Shown here: one piece after another, positions 18,001 through 24,000 of the stretch
Layout: every line of letters begins with the position of its first letter
Numbering within the stretch: position 1 is the stretch's first letter
NCBI GenBank assembly: GCA_031458695.1
Contig: JAVKJW010000001.1
Coordinates: 64,001-128,000 of the forward strand
Length of the DNA stretch: 64,000 nt
Direction: 5' to 3'
Source: Candidatus Thermofontivivens primus
Lineage (GTDB): Bacteria; Sysuimicrobiota; Sysuimicrobiia; Sysuimicrobiales; Thermofontiviventaceae
Program-made: the position numbers

Positions 18001-21000
18001 ACCCAACTAGCATCCTAAGTTTACAATTCCGCCTAGTTCCCTTAAAATGGGAGAGTGAGCAACGTGTAGGGGGAGATGTGCCTATGCCAACAGGAAGCGA
18101 AGCGATGCAATCGACGCGGCGGGAGATCCTCACCCTGCTGAAGACACGCGGGCCGATGACCGTCAAGGAACTGAGCAAATCCCTGGGCATCACAGCCATG
18201 GGGGTGCGCCAGCACCTCGCCACGTTGGAGCGTGACGGGTACGTCGCGCCAGGAGGGATTCGCCGGGGTCAGGGGCGTCCCAGTCGCATGTATACGATCA
18301 CCCCGCGTGGAGACGACCTCTTCCCACGTACCTACCAGCAGTTTGCCATCGCTCTCCTTGAGGACCTCCGAGCCCTCGAAGGGGAAGCGAAGGTGATGAA
18401 ACTCCTGGAGAAGCGCAAGGAGAGGCTCCTAGAGGAGTATCGGGAACGGCTAAAGGGAAAAGCTGGCGCGGAGATGGTCGCGGAGCTTGCCCGGATCCGC
18501 CACGAGGAAGGGTACCTCGCGGAGTGGAAGCAGGTGGACACCAACACCTACCTGCTCATTGAACACAACTGTCCCATCCGCCATATCGCCGATCACTTCC
18601 AACAAGCCTGCCACATGGAGCAGGCGCTGTTCGCCGAAGTGCTCGGTGCAGAGGTGAACCGCTCCCAACACATCCTCAAAGGAGAGCTCTCCTGCTCATA
18701 CACCATTAAGTTCCCCACAGCTCGGCCAAGGCGGCGAACCTGAGATCACGGGCAAAAGGCTTTTGACATTTGGCGGAAACCCCTGCGGGCTCCTCTCCGA
18801 AGAGGTCTTCCCCCTCTCCCCAGCGAATCTACCACCTGAGGGCAACACTAGCCTCTCGAATGAGGCCCCAGCGAAACCCTGTCAAAAAGAGTTCGCGGGG
18901 CCACTTCGCAAATCGAAAGGGGAGGTGAAGGATCATGGTGCGGCTTGTGTGGTACGGGCACGCCTGCTGGTCCATTGAGGGAGACAAAGCCACGATCCTC
19001 ATCGATCCGTTCATCACAGGGAACCCCGAGGCTCCAACCACAGCAGACAAGGTGAAAGCGGACTACATCATCGTGACCCATGGGCATGGAGACCACATCG
19101 GCGACACTGTAGACATCGCCAAGCGCACAGGGGCCACGGTCATTAGCAACTACGAGATCACCAGCTACTGCCAGGCGAAGGGAGTCCAGAACGTTCATCC
19201 CCTGCATCTCGGCGGCGGTTTCAACTTCCCCTTCGGCCGGGTGAAGCTTACTATCGCCCACCACGGCTCCGGTCTCCCCGATGGCTCTTATGGGGGGAGC
19301 GCCGCGGGGGTGATCCTAGAACTTGGAGGGAAGCGCCTCTACCATGCCGGGGACACGGCCCTCTTCCTCGACATGCAGCTCATCGGGCGAGGCGGGCTGG
19401 ACGCAGCAATGATCCCCATCGGCGACAACTTCACCATGGGGCCTGACGATGCCCTGGAGGCAGTGAAGCTGCTCCAGCCCAAGATCGTCTTCCCCATGCA
19501 CTACGGGGCATTCGACGTGATCAAGCAGGACCCGCAGACGTGGAAGACACGCGTGGAAGCGGAGACACAGACAAAGGTGGTGATCTTGCGACCAGGTGAG
19601 GGATACGCGCTCGATTGATCTCATCGAGTTTGTTGGCGAAGTTACTCAGTCACTCCGTCACTGAGTCACTGGTCATGGAGATGAGAAGTCTCCTTGTTGC
19701 ATTCTTCGTTGCATACCTGTGGGGCGCGCTACCTTTAGGCTTTTTGGCCGTCAAGTCCACGCGGAAGGTGGATATCCGGCGCCTGAGCCCTTACAACGTG
19801 GGATTCCGCCCACTCCTTGCCCTTGCTGGCCCCGCCGCCGTGGGGGCTTTCTTTCTGGACGTGGCCAAGGGAGCGCTCCCTCCCTTGCTCTCTTGGATGA
19901 TCCGCCCTGAGCCAGGATATGCCGTTGCAGCTGCCCTTGGCGTTCTCATCGGGCACCTCTACTCCCCCTATTTCCTCTTCACCGAGGGATCCTTCCCAAG
20001 GGCTAAAAGCGTAGGGACTGCAGCGGGCGCGGCAGGGGGGTTGTGGCTGGTGGGCTTCCTTCCTCTCCTCCCCTTGCTCTTTGCGCTGGGAGTCTGGATG
20101 GCCACCATTGCCCTGCCAAGGTTATGGGGAAGATGGGGGTACCCGTCCCTCGCCTCCGTCCTCGCTGCATTGACCCTGGCGATCGGCCTGGGGGTATCCC
20201 GAACTCCGCATGCTGGCATCTTTTTTGGCATCGCGCTCTGCGTGCTCGTGCTGTGGCGCCATAAGGAGAACCTGGGACGCATCGCCGATGGGCTCGAACC
20301 GAGGCTCGGCGAGTACCTCCCCGTCCCTGGCCTGGGGGAGGAGGTCGGGTGTGCCTTCTTGATCCACCCCATGAGCCCCCTCGACTGGTGGCAGTCCAAC
20401 CGTTTTCGCTGGCTCCGCCCCTTAGCCGACCGGGGGATCATTCCCTTCTCCCTCCTCCGCTGGCTGAGTCGGTATATCCGTCCCATGAAAGTGGACGAGA
20501 TCCGCTCCATCACGACCACCGAGGGGAAGCGGGCAAGGGTCTATCTCTTAGGGGTCCCCCTCCTTCCCGACCAGATCAAAGGCGAGCCAGCCCTGGCGCT
20601 TCGCCGCACGATCCAAGCAGCACGGCTCGCCAGGGACCTCGGAGCGGTGGTCATGGGCTTGGGCGCGTACTGGTCCGTGGTAGGCCAGAAGGGGATTGAA
20701 GTACAAGAGCAGAGCGAAATCGTCATTACCAATGGAGGGGCATTTACGGCAGGAACGGTCAGGGCGGCCGTCCCGCAGATCCTTGGGCGGCTCCAGGAGA
20801 AAGGGATCTCCCCCAGGCAGGCCACTGCGGCAGTAGTGGGCGCCAACGGTGTGGTTGGGTTCGGTATCTGCCGCATGATCGCCGGCGAGGTGGGACGTTT
20901 GATCATGGTAGGCACCGACCTCGGGCGCCTGGAGCGCTCGCGGCAGCGCCTCGCGAGCAGGTTCCCCAGGACAACCATCGAGATCACCACCGACCTTCGA

Positions 21001-24000
21001 CGCATCCGCGAGGCAGATGTGATCTTTACGGCCACCAACACCCCGGAGGCGGTGGTGTATCCGGAGCATGTGAGGGAAGGAGCGCTTATCTACGACCTGG
21101 GGAGACCTGCCGACGTCCACCCCTCTGTCGCCCAGGTCCCGAGGGTGGAAGTGATTCCCGGGGGGGTGGTCCGTCCTCCCGGGAACCCCACTGGCCGCAT
21201 CGATCTTGGGTACGGCCCCGGTCTCTTCCCCGCCTGTCTCGCAGAGACCGTGATCATCGCCTTAGACGGAGCTTACGAACGCCGTAGCCTTGGGGAGAGG
21301 ACGCGCACCGAAAATATCGAGTATTTCGTGCGAAGGGCCGAGGAGATGGGTTTCCGGGTGGTTACAGAGGCTCCAGACACGAGATCCCAGGTCTCCCTCG
21401 CCGCTTCTCCCACGCACTCCTGAACCATCCCGGCAAGAGGCGACTTGACCCTCGCCGTGGCTCCCTCCGCACTATCCCGTGTTCCCAAGCGAAATCCTGG
21501 CAAAACGTTTCAGCAGAGCACCTGAAAAGGGACGTACCTGAGGATCACCGCTCGAACCACAGGGTCTGAGGTCTCAAATGGTGGGAGATCCCAAGCTGGG
21601 AGGCCATCATCGTGCTCCAGGCCAGGAATCCCTCGATGATGGTCAGAGCCTCCTCCTCCACTTCCTCTGGGCTCAGGTTGGAGAACTGGAGCTTGGCGAG
21701 GTTCTCGCCAATTGCGTGGACGAAGGTGTCGATATCCTCGAGGAGGATGCGGCCAATCTTCATGCCCGAGGTGGTCACCATGGCCGGCCTCTGGGGGCTC
21801 CGGGGCGAAAGGCGGCGGCGTTGGGAGACCGCCCACTCCGCCAGCTCCAGAAGTGTATAGAACGCCTCCCCCACCCCGCGCTCCACAGCCAAGGAGACGA
21901 AGATCTGCGCATGCCGCCAGACCTGGTGAACGATGCTGGCGAGCATTCGCTTGTCATAAGCGTTCAGGCCTGCGTTTCCTCCCACACCTTTAGGGTTCGG
22001 CACAAATGGAGCGGCCTCCTTCTATTTCCTGATTCCTGACTTCCTTGTGGCATGCCAGGGTAACTCACCTCTGCAAGAGCCTTCTGTCCATCTACCCCGG
22101 ATCATGAAGGGGGTGCATGATCATCTCAGAGATTCCAGGACGCAACGACGGGGTTGCGCAGGACCCCGATCCCTTCGATCTCTGCTTCCACAATGTCGCC
22201 GGGCTGGAGGAACTGCGGGGGATTCATAGCAAACCCGCACCCAGCCCCCGTCCCAGTTGCGATAATGTCCCCTGGCTCAATTGTCATGCCCACGGAGAGG
22301 CTGCTCAGGATCGCAGGGATATCGAAGATCATCTGCCGCGTGTGGAACCGTTGTCGCTCCACCCCGTTCACCCGCAGGACCAGCGTGGCCTGCGGCGGCG
22401 CTCCCAAATCGTCGCGGAGGACTACCCAAGGTCCCATTGGGCAGAAGGTATCGCAACTCTTCCCCTTGAACCACTGGCCGTGTCTCTGCTGGAGATCCCG
22501 CGCGGTGATATCGTTGAGGATCGTATATCCAAACACGTAGTTGAACGCTTCCTCGGGAGGGATATCCTTTCCCTTGCGCCCAATGATCACGGCCAACTCA
22601 CACTCCCAATCCAAGCGTGTAGTGGCGCGCGGGCGCACGATAGGTGCATCCGGGCCGATGACCGCGGTGGGTGCCTTGGTGAAGAAAACAGGGACCGGCG
22701 GGAGCTCCACTGTCCAGCCCTTCCTGCCCTCCCCTCCCTCCTTTTCTGGACCCCACAAGACGTGCGCTCCTTCCTCAACGTGCTCGCGGTAGTTGCGGCC
22801 GACGCAGAAGATGTTCTTGGACGGCCTCGGGAACGGGGCAAGAAGGGTGACCTGGTTTAGGGGGGTTAGGGCCGTTCCCTCCTTTCCTCGCGCTTCCTCA
22901 ATCATACCCTTGGCCCACTCCTCTACCTCGCGGGCCATCCCAATGGCATCCTCACCTTGCTGGATGAACTCTATAAGGCTCGCCGGCCACCTCCCCTTCC
23001 AACGAGGTTCTACCTCGGGATCCACAAGCCACGTCTCCACCACGAGGCCCAGGCGATGGCCGCTTTGCGCTTGGAATGTAGCAAGTTTCATCCCCTGCCC
23101 TCCTTACAACGATGGTGCTCTGGGGAGTTCATACACTCCATCTTTCAATGGACCCCGGCGAAAGCCAAGTAGCCCATTGTTGGAGTTCTTCAGCGCGGTT
23201 CGCCGAAAGAGACGAGAACTCCTGCTAGGGAAAATCGAGGGGCCAAGGAACTTAGAAGTCTTGCTCCTGGAATGCCCGGGTGGCAAGCCACAGAGGGATC
23301 ATCACCCAGGCCACGAGCGAGACAGCGATGAGCGTCTTCCCGAGGACGGACCCGGCCAGTTCCCCAAGGATCGCTCCTCCCGGTCCCAGGGAGGTTTTCG
23401 CTCCCACAAGCATGAGAACCACCACCCGCACTGTGTCCATGGGGTTCGCCAGGACAGAGGAAAGGAGGATCGGCCTCAACCACTCCCCGCCAAAGAGGAT
23501 GGAGACGCCTAGGACCATCAGGTCATAGAGCACGCCAAGGAGGATCCAGAGTGCAAGCGCCCCGCCGAGAGCTTTCATCCTGTTCCTGGCAACAATGGAA
23601 ACCAACGCTCCAAGCCCGAGGAAGACCATGCACAGGAGTATGGAAAGAACCACCAGGACGGCGTATGCCACCAACTCAGAGAGTCCGGCCCTGAGGGCAA
23701 TGACTACCCCGGAGATCCCGAGGGCCCAGAGAAGGCCCGCACTCATGGCCCCGCAAGCCCCAAGGTATTTCCCCACGACCACCTCCCGCCGCGTGATGGG
23801 CTGGGCCAGGAGAACCTCCGTATCCCCTTGCTCTGGGGAAAAGGCCAGGACCCCGAGGGCTAGGGCATTCACAGGGATGAGGAAGGTGATGAGGTTGACT
23901 AAGCTTGTGGCGGTGCGGGCAAATCCCACAAACCGAGCGTATCCCCCGAGGCTCAGACCCAGGTATGAGACCCCTAGCGCCAGGATAGCGAGGAGGAGGG

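Follow-up and report, generated by a model that had tools for sequence, protein, structure and literature searches.

Related systems

The closest described counterparts of the protein analysed here are acyl-thioester reductases and membrane acyltransferases. In the account of acyl-ACP reductase (AAR; Synechococcus elongatus, structures 6JZQ, 6JZU, 6JZY and 6JZZ) given in PMC7089970, the acyl-enzyme forms without NADPH, the substrate enters via the nucleotide cleft with its tail toward the tunnel exit, and the CoA moiety binds in the cleft that NADPH also uses. The studied or predicted relatives, which include the N-terminal thioester reductase domain of PigE (prodigiosin MAP pathway; 4PPM), are described as thioester reductases whose product is an aldehyde, which in most cases is then transaminated to an amine (PMC7089970, PMC8341465, PMC6498172). 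Both PigE and KecF contain a class III aminotransferase domain, and they belong to secondary metabolism. A further AAR-like fold is the carmabin TAD (9E4S-9E56), an NAD-specific domain that closes NRPS/PKS modules and has an invariant Cys close to the nicotinamide, for which transfer of the acyl-Cys to ammonia is proposed (10.1101/2024.10.28.620694). For the acyl-phosphate:G3P acyltransferase PlsY of Aquifex aeolicus (aaPlsY; 5XJ5-5XJ9), residue roles have been established, and single substitutions at the Ser35, Thr41 and Arg45 sites cut activity by more than 90% (PMC5700162).

Architecture of the fused protein

The window, a stretch of 64,000 nucleotides from Candidatus Thermofontivivens primus, contains a gene at 19675..21423 (+) that joins a PlsY-like module to an AAR-like domain through a short linker. 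Translation is free of stops over 582 aa plus the final stop, so the gene is intact; its longest frame opens at TTG 19615. At least 120 full-length homologs, of 572-630 aa, are among the matches listed. An earlier note on this DNA had proposed a fusion of PlsY with an AAR/PigE-type domain, and this architecture is upheld by Pfam, NCBIfam, PDB matches and Foldseek. Both domains are confident in an AF2 model of the whole protein (mean pLDDT 88.8, pTM 0.84). The fusion is a real, broadly conserved, uncharacterised lipid enzyme that combines a membrane acyltransferase-like module with a fatty-acyl reductase-like domain.

Between the two parts lie the C-terminal tail of PlsY (DGLEPRLGE) and some 10 linker residues (20284..20349, +; model pLDDT 73-80). 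In the alignment, stand-alone PlsY proteins close with the same GxExRLG motif as this tail. A docking prediction weakly suggests that the domains dock onto each other: the ipSAE is 0.40, against 0.04 for the best control. That mark was attained by 116 of the 157 solved complexes, as well as by 2 of the 215 mismatches; among these, only 18 solved complexes but both mismatches scored 0.60 or less. Docking runs, made without supplied contacts, share at least 87% of their contacts, with partner pLDDT of at least 85.

The C-terminal domain (residues 226-565; 20350..21369, +) matches the N-terminal part of PigE in NCBIfam (102.9 bits on residues 273-562, PigE positions 47-335), AAR at 48.6 bits (TIGR04058, cut-off 449.7) and Pfam Shikimate_DH on residues 381-494 (36.7 bits). 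Its best PDB sequence match is PigE (4ppm, 6e-16), followed by AAR (6jzq/6jzu, 5e-11). Foldseek relates it to AAR 6jzu/6jzz/6jzy with E down to 2.6e-19 and TM-scores by target of 0.76-0.78, and to the carmabin TAD with E 2e-15 and 17% identity. Identity to AAR is 21-22%; AAR is soluble, whereas this domain is attached to a membrane module. Unlike PigE and KecF, the fusion neither contains an aminotransferase nor has one among its conserved neighbours, and its partner is instead the PlsY-like module. A free paralog of the domain, previously noted, was confirmed (about 370 aa, 30-37% identity).

It had also been claimed that a catalytic-type Cys and a GxxGxxG motif are kept, and the alignments bear this out. 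The dinucleotide loop GANGVVG (residues 389-395; 20839..20859, +) aligns with AAR 162-GATGDIG-168, as VVGANGVVG does with VVGATGDIG; G389 and G392 are invariant in every row of our family table, and Deinococcota have Ala for the third Gly. The Cys of PACLAE, Cys521 (codon 21235..21237, +), aligns with AAR Cys294 (by our own count; 6jzz is titled AAR-C294S) and with the Cys of PigE NGCMAE, and is the putative acyl-accepting nucleophile. Among the 42 aligned homologs neither this Cys nor the loop varies, and apart from the third Gly of the loop the same holds for every row of the wider tables. Glu524 and many other residues of the active-site region are likewise invariant in all 42 sequences. 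However, because CoA shares the NADPH cleft of AAR, the conserved glycine loop by itself is no proof of hydride transfer. The AAR residues that contact the NADPH 2'-phosphate, R189, R193 and R314, correspond to T414, R418 and E541, so that only one of three is retained (our own count on the alignment).

The PlsY-family module (residues 12-203; 19708..20283, +) scores 83 bits with Pfam G3P_acyltransf (PF02660, cut-off 24.1), and a six-frame search finds the same place. It shares its family and 7-helix fold with aaPlsY (5xj5 sequence match 3e-13; Foldseek TM-scores by target 0.79-0.82 for 5xj5-5xj8). Its score as a PlsY equivalog is 72.4, against an NCBIfam cut-off of 137.2. The module retains the equivalents of aaPlsY Asn37, His92, Lys104, Ser142, His177 and Asn180 (alignment and family table), among them His177, Asn180 and Arg183 in the C-terminal motif HKENLGR (H196, N199, R202; 20260..20280, +). 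However, motif 1, LSPYNVGFRPLLA (19783..19821, +), is degenerate relative to aaPlsY: Ser35 is replaced by Pro39, Thr41 by Arg45, Asn42 by Pro46 and Arg45 by Ala49, with Asn37 kept as N41. In loop 3 (19999..20019, +), RAKSVGT replaces the canonical GGKGVAT; the Lys104 equivalent is kept (K111), and the change of Gly102 to Arg109 is invariant across the fusion family. With Ser35, Thr41 and Arg45 gone, the module lacks two of the four G3P phosphate-clamp residues and the acyl-carbonyl Thr.

The clamp residues differ by clade and were lost in more than one way: the Sysuimicrobiota type shows P/G/A/H, and the Deinococcota type A/E/R/Y. By contrast, the family does not vary at His92, at position 104 (Lys or Arg, save three Met), in motif 2 (D, K) or in the new Arg that stands at Gly102. 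Since the "phosphate hole" (His94, Lys111) is retained in the window's clade and half of the G3P clamp is gone, ordinary G3P acylation is not the module's conserved job. Among 16 fused proteins of the phylum that we read, all lack the canonical Ser35 and Thr41, and Arg45 is gone in all save that of G014; 14 are of type B with N180H and 2 of type C. This degenerate site is common to PlsX-bearing and PlsX-less genomes and therefore probably predates the loss of PlsX.

PlsX and other lipid genes in the genome

The genome, which is 96.3% complete, gives no match to PlsX (PF02504). Its contig has the order coaD-yceD-rpmF-fabH-fabD-fabG-acpP-fabF with rpmF abutting fabH, and in the relatives G053 and G035 plsX lies between these two genes. 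The reported absence of PlsX is therefore a real deletion. GpsA was also said to be absent, and PF07479 indeed has no match in the genome, with only weak partial matches to PF01210 (at most 26 bits). However, this is uninformative about the fusion gene, since 88 of the phylum's 94 genomes lack GpsA and a full-length glycerol kinase GlpK is present here (739 bits). Searching the genome for ADO gave no matches, and the alkane pathway is thus ruled out here.

PlsX had been called the only known maker of acyl-phosphate. This does not hold, because the genome has a second PlsY-like gene within a FakB-PlsY-FakA operon, and FakA/FakB is an alternative acyl-phosphate source to PlsX.

Distribution of the fusion and of PlsX

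Our survey of the phylum covers 94 genomes, and its counts include the unpublished G030 and G022. The fused form occurs in 29, with one broken copy in addition (G024), and PlsX is missing in 23. These counts differ from those of the earlier note. The link between fusion and PlsX loss is stronger than first counted: 16 of the 23 PlsX-less genomes have the fusion, as do 9 of the 12 PlsX-less genomes among the 54 of high quality (at least 90% complete, at most 5% contaminated). Put differently, PlsX is missing from 16 of 29 fused genomes versus 7 of 64 unfused ones, and is present in the other 13 fused genomes. In 12 genomes (G006-G009, G012-G014, G023, G026-G028, G040) the fusion is the sole PF02660 match, and the same 12 lack PlsX and FakA. 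Completeness reaches 90% or more in six of these, among them one assembled into 4 contigs. Of the 94 genomes, just 2 contain FakA. Related genera, about 7 in number, account for the losses of PlsX. PF01553 acyltransferases number at least two in the PlsX-less genomes (2, 4, 2, 2).

Beyond the phylum, every one of the 121 Deinococcota genomes sampled gives a match to the fusion, full-length in 118 and truncated at contig ends in 3. PlsX is likewise present in all 121, and a high-scoring PlsY is present in 5 of 5 examined, so that the fusion has a role of its own there. Five of five "canonical-site" genomes have no PlsY other than the fusion, which there retains every catalytic residue; all five have PlsX matches, intact in four and split in G218. 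Neighbours at 80 fusion loci are housekeeping genes that vary by clade, with no conserved aminotransferase, alcohol dehydrogenase or other aldehyde-using gene among them.

Possible functions

Our best explanation, to which we give a probability of about 40%, is that the fusion is a membrane-docked acyl-thioester reductase yielding long-chain aldehyde. An acyl group would move from a thioester (acyl-ACP, possibly acyl-CoA) to Cys521, and NAD(P)H would reduce the bound acyl to a fatty aldehyde. The PlsY-derived 7-helix module, held by its short linker, would take the place that ADO, the aldehyde-accepting partner, has on cyanobacterial AAR. The lipid would enter this module tail-first and from there pass into the membrane or react further in the altered pocket, and the aldehyde would go into some reduced portion of a lipid. 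The architecture, conserved residues and phyletic patterns are what we observed; that the acyl group is reduced, what donates it, which way it is handed over and where the aldehyde ends up are what we infer. We favour this explanation because the AAR-like fold, the alignment of Cys521 with Cys294 and the dinucleotide loop are kept, because AAR, the PigE N-domain and KecF are studied or predicted aldehyde-yielding thioester reductases, and because the G3P clamp has decayed differently in each clade while the phosphate-hole positions are invariant. The separate role of the fusion in Deinococcota, the exclusion of the alkane pathway here, and the confident model with its weakly supported docking also speak for it. 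Several points count against it: the retention of only one in three AAR 2'-phosphate residues, the existence of the carmabin TAD, an AAR-like domain for which acyl transfer without reduction is proposed, and the lack of a conserved aldehyde-using neighbour at the 80 loci. It also does not explain why losses of PlsX and of high-scoring PlsY fall mostly in fusion-bearing lineages of the phylum, nor how G3P is acylated in the 12 fusion-only genomes without PlsX and FakA.

These last observations would be accounted for by a self-loading acyltransferase, which we regard as a tentative second choice. Here the AAR-like domain would load Cys521 from acyl-ACP or acyl-CoA, the acyl group would reach the PlsY-like site by phosphorolysis or direct transfer, and G3P or a related acceptor would be acylated, so that cells could do without PlsX and, in some lineages, without PlsY. 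In GAPDH and aspartate-semialdehyde dehydrogenase the phosphorolysis of thioesters is established chemistry, the AAR acyl-enzyme is described as needing no NADPH, and the TAD offers a proposed precedent for acyl-Cys transfer to a non-hydride nucleophile. The deletion of plsX from the rpmF-fabH slot, the enrichment of the fusion in PlsX-less genomes, the fusion-only genomes and the scarcity of FakA all favour this idea, and the short linker and possible docking are compatible with channelling. In the canonical-site genomes, moreover, the fusion ties both activities together physically, which suits hand-over to PlsY better than an aldehyde side branch.

However, the fused proteins of the phylum lack Ser35, Thr41 and (save G014) Arg45 whether or not PlsX is present, and such changes singly cost aaPlsY most of its activity. 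PlsX is kept in all Deinococcota, in 13 fused genomes of the phylum and, as matches, in the canonical-site genomes; the PF01553 acyltransferases could perform the first acylation in PlsX-less genomes; the present genome has FakAB and another PlsY-like gene; and losses in related genera may be few events. PlsX itself could be a functional analogue only, in that each protein, working at the membrane, would obtain from acyl-ACP the acyl groups that PlsY uses; the two are unrelated in sequence and fold, and they coexist widely. The earlier suggestion of a PlsX substitute is therefore unsupported as a general role, given FakAB, the degenerate PlsY site and the Deinococcota, and survives as a lineage-specific possibility. 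That the fusion is simply a stand-in for the missing PlsX is not supported.

It is improbable that the fusion is instead an acyl-phosphate reductase, in which the PlsY-like module binds acyl-phosphate (from FakAB here, from PlsX elsewhere) and Cys521 attacks it in place of G3P, with NAD(P)H then giving the aldehyde. Aspartate-semialdehyde dehydrogenase and ArgC reduce their acyl-phosphates by like chemistry, the phosphate-hole residues His92 and Lys/Arg104 are invariant though the G3P clamp decays, FakA and FakB are present in this genome, and PlsX is present in all Deinococcota sampled. However, the 12 fusion genomes without PlsX and FakA have no known acyl-phosphate source, and head-first entry from the membrane side would require another path than the nucleotide cleft described for AAR (PMC7089970).

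We consider it very unlikely that aldehyde and G3P combine in the PlsY-like pocket to make ether or vinyl-ether lipids, or that the Rossmann domain reduces 1-acyl-DHAP. The missing GpsA and the altered 2-OH and phosphate binders of the pocket in most clades agree with such a route, but GpsA is also lost in genomes with high-scoring PlsX and PlsY, GlpK is present here, and a ketoreductase requires no invariant Cys. We know of no enzymology of aldehyde-G3P condensation or of such a 1-acyl-DHAP reduction, and the Deinococcota, all of which have the fusion, are to our knowledge not known for ether lipids. Just as remote is a Rossmann domain that only senses NAD(P)H or acyl-thioester and regulates the PlsY-like module: its joining to the only PlsY of canonical-site genomes could serve regulation, but the invariance of Cys521, Glu524 and the active-site region points to catalysis, and the PlsY site is itself degenerate in two large clades.

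Significance for the family

The fusion family is old, widespread and uncharacterised. If it makes aldehydes, the obvious sink in Deinococcota would be the long-chain alkylamine of their signature phosphoglycolipid. In the descriptions given by PMC3398001 and PMC9636437, the major phosphoglycolipid of Thermus and Deinococcus contains an amide-linked long-chain alkylamine, of the same chain type as its fatty acids, and the enzymes that would make the third chain "have not been identified"; this lack of an assignment in those sources is a further reason for favouring the aldehyde-making reductase. The culturable Thermus and Deinococcus relatives make the fusion family accessible to testing.

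Domain architecture and family membership

The gene at 19675-21423 (+) is open throughout its 582 codons. In Pfam, residues 12-203 of the encoded protein match the family G3P_acyltransf (PF02660; 83 bits, cut-off 24.1) and residues 381-494 form a Rossmann segment of the Shikimate_DH type; neither a class III aminotransferase domain nor homology to PlsX (PF02504) was found in the protein with Pfam. The best PDB matches are PigE (4ppm, 6e-16), Aquifex PlsY (5xj5, 3e-13) and the cyanobacterial acyl-ACP reductase, AAR (6jzq/6jzu, 5e-11). Cys521, within PACLAE, aligns with AAR chain index 294, the catalytic cysteine on which the acyl-enzyme of AAR is formed, and GANGVVG aligns with GATGDIG of AAR. 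An AlphaFold2 model from 42 homologs (pLDDT 88.8, mostly above 89 across residues 1-200; pTM 0.84) was compared with known structures in Foldseek, which returned the seven-helix fold of PlsY (5xj5-5xj8; TM-score by target 0.79-0.82, rmsd 3.0-3.4), the fold of AAR (TM-score by target 0.76-0.78) and also the carmabin terminal amidation domain (TAD). Docking of the two domains (0.40, against 0.04 for the best control) weakly supports their association. The architecture described in the earlier note, with its GxxGxxG loop and cysteine, is borne out.

Each resemblance is partial. The seven-helix fold is shared with PlsY, but the protein scores 72.4 bits for the PlsY equivalog (NCBIfam TIGR00023), under the cut-off of 137.2, and keeps only part of the phosphate clamp (see next section). 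The fold, the cysteine and the dinucleotide loop are shared with AAR, but the score for TIGR04058 is far under the equivalog cut-off (48.6 against 449.7 bits), the aldehyde-accepting partner of AAR (aldehyde-deformylating oxygenase, ADO) is missing, and of the three residues of the NADPH 2'-phosphate pocket, R189, R193 and R314, which align with T414, R418 and E541, one is kept, as counted by hand on the PDB alignment with pocket residues taken from the AAR literature. PigE matches in its reductase part alone (NF053554, positions 47-335 of 837; 102.9 bits against a cut-off of 850), and its aminotransferase domain is missing from the fusion. PlsX was considered only as a functional analogy. In the equivalog sense, then, the sequence places the fusion outside PlsY, AAR and PigE, as a combination of two known kinds.

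An assembly artefact can be excluded, as the best 120 of 618 homologs are all 572-630 aa long and each carry PF02660 (most also PF01488). A protein atlas returned only the cluster of the fusion family itself, whose members are named 'glycerol-3-phosphate acyltransferase' or 'predicted amino acid dehydrogenase' in databases, and our literature search found no paper on a fusion of PlsY with an acyl-ACP reductase. A promoter and terminator scan gave nothing exceeding shuffled sequence.

The PlsY-like site

In aaPlsY, whose numbering we follow, the phosphate of glycerol 3-phosphate (G3P) is clamped by Ser35, Arg45, Lys104 and Asn180, the 2-OH is bound by Ser142 and His177, the acyl-phosphate site is made up of His92, Thr41 and the backbone of loop 3, and Asn37 acts on the transition state, as described in PMC5700162. 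In the alignment of the window protein with 5xj5, two of the four clamp residues are replaced (Ser35 by Pro39, Arg45 by Ala49) and two are kept (K111 and N199). In the acyl-phosphate site, His92 is kept as His94, Thr41 is replaced by Arg45, and the loop GGKGVAT reads RAKSVGT. Equivalents of Asn37, His92, Lys104, Ser142, His177 and Asn180 are all retained. Judged by these residues, the PlsY module of the fusion is not a canonical PlsY.

We tabulated site residues for 77 full ORFs and 10 database proteins. Invariant across these rows are the reductase cysteine, the next glutamate, the first two glycines, motif 2 (D, K), His92 and a new Arg at the position of Gly102; the Lys104 position holds Lys or Arg, with Met in three rows. 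The G3P site occurs in three types. Type A (five rows and most database matches) keeps everything. Type B (rows of the Sysuimicrobiota type) has Pro or Ala for Ser35, Gly for Thr41, Ala for Arg45 and His for Asn180; this type also has a variant that retains His177 and Asn180, made up of the window protein and P0002, its 83% relative. Type C (all Deinococcota rows) has Ala, Val or Pro for Ser35, Glu for Thr41, and Tyr or Phe for His177. In a quick maximum-likelihood tree built from the reductase domain, types A and C group as sisters (support 93) to the exclusion of the type B rows; the outgroup branch is very long (2.26), and the root and the order of the three types are unsure. The canonical residues must be ancestral and were replaced differently in types B and C, which means at least two separate decays of the G3P site.

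In 16 genomes of the phylum to which the window belongs, Sysuimicrobiota, the fused protein lacks the canonical G3P residues with or without PlsX in the genome; 14 of these proteins are of type B. Two genomes of genus g5 (G017, locus L119; G019, locus L112) carry a copy of Deinococcota type C, with Glu at Thr41, Tyr at His177 and GxxGxxA, which hints at either transfer between the two phyla or contamination.

Entry to phospholipid synthesis in this genome

PlsX/PlsY and PlsB are the textbook starts of bacterial phospholipid synthesis. The absence of PlsX stated in the earlier note is confirmed: PF02504 has no match in the genome (96.3% complete), and the fab cluster, on one contig, reads coaD-yceD-rpmF-fabH-fabD-fabG-acpP-fabF with rpmF directly abutting fabH. 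In two PlsX-bearing relatives (G053 and G035) the order is the same, with plsX between rpmF and fabH. PlsX is missing through a clean deletion, not a gap, and acyl-ACP is available in this genome.

That PlsX is the only known maker of acyl-phosphate, as had been assumed, does not hold. Acyl-phosphate is also known to come from fatty acid kinase (PMC9136124), and the genome encodes this enzyme together with a second PlsY-family gene, in a FakB(DegV)-PlsY-FakA operon outside the window (contig C53, locus L001, 3-3000 (-)) whose FakA is complete (Dak2, FakA_M, FakA_C). The PlsY-like protein of this operon (194 aa, 105.7 bits) keeps loop 3 as GGKGVAT and has Gly for Ser35, Met for Thr41 and no alignable His177/Asn180 motif. 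By their residues, neither PlsY-family protein of the genome has the full canonical site. Among the 94 phylum genomes, FakA occurs in this one and G019 only; in G019 the contig with FakA also carries a PlsY paralog about 1 kb away.

GpsA, also reported as absent, indeed has no match in a profile search of the genome, but the loss loses its meaning as context: the GpsA C-domain (PF07479) is found in 6 of the 94 phylum genomes and missing in 88, including genomes with high-scoring PlsX and PlsY, which most of the phylum's genomes have, and a full-length glycerol kinase (GlpK) is encoded at C53:87217-88710 (739 bits, cut-off 590). Because the loss is phylum-wide, we rejected it as evidence on the fusion. 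The genome has one PlsC-type acyltransferase. A G1P dehydrogenase was set aside, as PF13685 matches are unspecific and the same family is positive in 13 of 14 controls. ADO (PF11266) has no match in the genome, with a positive Synechococcus control, and an alkane pathway was accordingly rejected.

Distribution within the phylum

The phylum set comprises 94 genomes of one order, which are kin and not independent; two of them (G030 and G022) are unpublished. An AAR-like gene is present in 88, fused in 29 (with a broken copy in G024) and as a free paralog of about 370 aa in the others. The free paralog is 30-37% identical to the fused domain and lies just upstream of greA (L087-L094, in G035, G045, G053, G075, G086, G089, G092 and G096), with clpC after greA in L091 and L093; the idea that it adjoins a plsY gene was rejected on these loci. 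The main text of the Sysuimicrobiota paper has no PlsX, PlsY or lipid terms.

The earlier note had proposed that the AAR-like domain passes an acyl group to the PlsY-like site and so bypasses PlsX. The pattern of PlsX loss in the phylum speaks for such a role: PlsX is missing in 23 of the 94 genomes, within about seven related genera, and 16 of these have the fusion. The seven without it include three of genus g29, and the others are 83-89% complete. In 12 genomes (G006-G009, G012-G014, G023, G026-G028 and G040; six at least 90% complete) the fusion is the sole PF02660 match, and PlsX, FakA and any other PlsY-type gene were not found, which leaves them without a known source of acyl-phosphate. 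However, in the very lineages that lost PlsX the G3P site is degenerate, and PlsX-less genomes have two to four PF01553 acyltransferases at their disposal (a PlsX-bearing relative also has two).

Distribution outside the phylum

A scan of species genomes gave 256 stretches encoding a relative of the fusion, the best 80 of which include Ca. Fervidifonticultor, MAGs labelled 'Armatimonadota', and cultured species of Thermus, Meiothermus, Calidithermus and Deinococcus. All 121 sampled Deinococcota genomes match the fusion (118 matches span from residue 2-20 or so to residue 563 or beyond, and three are cut at contig ends), and all 121 also have PlsX. The five that we examined (G001-G005; loci L095-L103) each encode a PlsY of 167-175 bits and one or two further stand-alone PlsY paralogs, so that three to four PlsY-family genes coexist: the high-scoring PlsY, the fusion and paralogs of about 170-260 aa. 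In some paralogs DL--PGGSG replaces GSGN, and one type lies between hisD and uvrC. Long open frames near these genes yielded no extra domain.

In the type A genomes, the fusion is the only PF02660 match (5/5; 147-154 bits), so that the AAR-like domain is tied to the only PlsY, as acyl transfer between the two would have it. Against this stands that PlsX is retained wherever else the fusion occurs, with PlsX matches in the type A genomes (5/5) too. In one of these, PlsX consists of two adjacent pieces (G218:C21:19365-19977; 84.7 and 48.7 bits), either a frameshift or a sequencing error.

Gene neighbourhood

Clustering of ORFs from 80 related loci revealed no conserved lipid or aminotransferase partner, the commonest neighbour cluster occurring in only 15 loci, although ORFs were chosen by a crude greedy rule that missed the fusion in nine loci and possibly missed small genes. 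Neighbour representatives are housekeeping genes (IF3, L20, GlnRS, SOD, SHMT, UPRTase, DEAD helicase, cytidine deaminase, PrmA, RsmE, DnaB). Near the fusion in the window there are likewise no lipid genes; its neighbours are ThyX, MBL hydrolases, an ArsR-type regulator, an FAA hydrolase and nosDFYL. The ThyX ORF (14732-16255 (+), 507 aa) contains two ThyX (Thy1) stretches at about twice the usual length and may be a tandem ThyX. The run at 23252-27683 (-) is of the nos accessory type, with an ABC-2 permease, NosL, an ABC ATPase and NosD. In a Trueperaceae MAG, the DnaB helicase adjoining the fusion contains an intein (L078, 5887-7941 (-)).

Possible functions

Two readings survive. We favor the one, with a probability of roughly 40%, that the fusion would reduce an acyl-thioester to a long-chain aldehyde. 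This is based firstly on homology: AAR (PMC7089970), the PigE N-domain (PMC8341465) and KecF (PMC6498172) are described as converting thioesters to aldehydes, or are predicted to do so, in many cases with transamination to an amine as the next step, and the dodecylamine of a tambjamine is reported to be made by a separate acyl-ACP reductase and transaminase (bioRxiv 10.1101/2025.08.11.669332). Secondly, the fusion is universal in Deinococcota beside intact PlsX/PlsY. Thirdly, the phosphate hole has been retained through repeated decay of the G3P site. Finally, Deinococcota have an unmet need, as their major phosphoglycolipid has an amide-linked long-chain alkylamine (PMC3398001, PMC9636437), and PMC9636437 states that the enzymes behind this third chain have yet to be identified. 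In our literature search, no paper named genes by which Deinococcus or Thermus would make alkylamine lipids. The acyl tail in AAR is described as pointing through a tunnel to the partner ADO (PMC7089970); the PlsY-derived module, joined by a linker of about 10 residues, may take ADO's place on the AAR-like domain.

The second surviving reading, transfer of the acyl group to the PlsY-like site in place of PlsX, strikes us as somewhat less likely: the loss pattern in the phylum agrees with it, while the degenerate G3P site and the retention of PlsX throughout Deinococcota weaken it. There is a precedent in the AAR-like TAD, whose acyl-Cys is proposed to be transferred and not reduced (bioRxiv 10.1101/2024.10.28.620694). 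The glycine loop is compatible with reduction and transfer alike, because CoA and NADPH share a cleft in AAR (PMC7089970). For the 12 genomes in which the fusion is the sole PlsY-type gene, a more speculative extension is that it constitutes a third, self-contained start of bacterial phospholipid synthesis. The acyl group would be taken off acyl-ACP by Cys521 of the AAR-like domain and delivered to the rebuilt PlsY pocket, either as acyl-phosphate made in place or directly; the pocket would acylate the glycerol backbone by means of new residues, e.g., the Arg found at Gly102 throughout the family and the His at Asn180. It is improbable that the fusion acts as an acyl-phosphate reductase, and very improbable that it serves an ether/DHAP route or has a regulatory function.

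Implications

The interest of the fusion lies partly in other reasons than those first proposed: it is universal in the Deinococcota sampled, and a set of genomes devoid of all known acyl-phosphate sources has no PlsY-type gene besides it. Caution is warranted for 'PlsY' annotations, which conceal proteins without a G3P site. Since the family is present in cultured Thermus, Meiothermus and Deinococcus, its function is open to knock-out and lipidomics. If the fusion makes aldehydes, it would supply the first step, missing so far, on the way to the alkylamine in the signature phosphoglycolipids of Thermus and Deinococcus. If it instead loads PlsY, that loading would be independent of PlsX and would explain the dozen Sysuimicrobiota genomes without PlsX, FakA or an ordinary PlsY.
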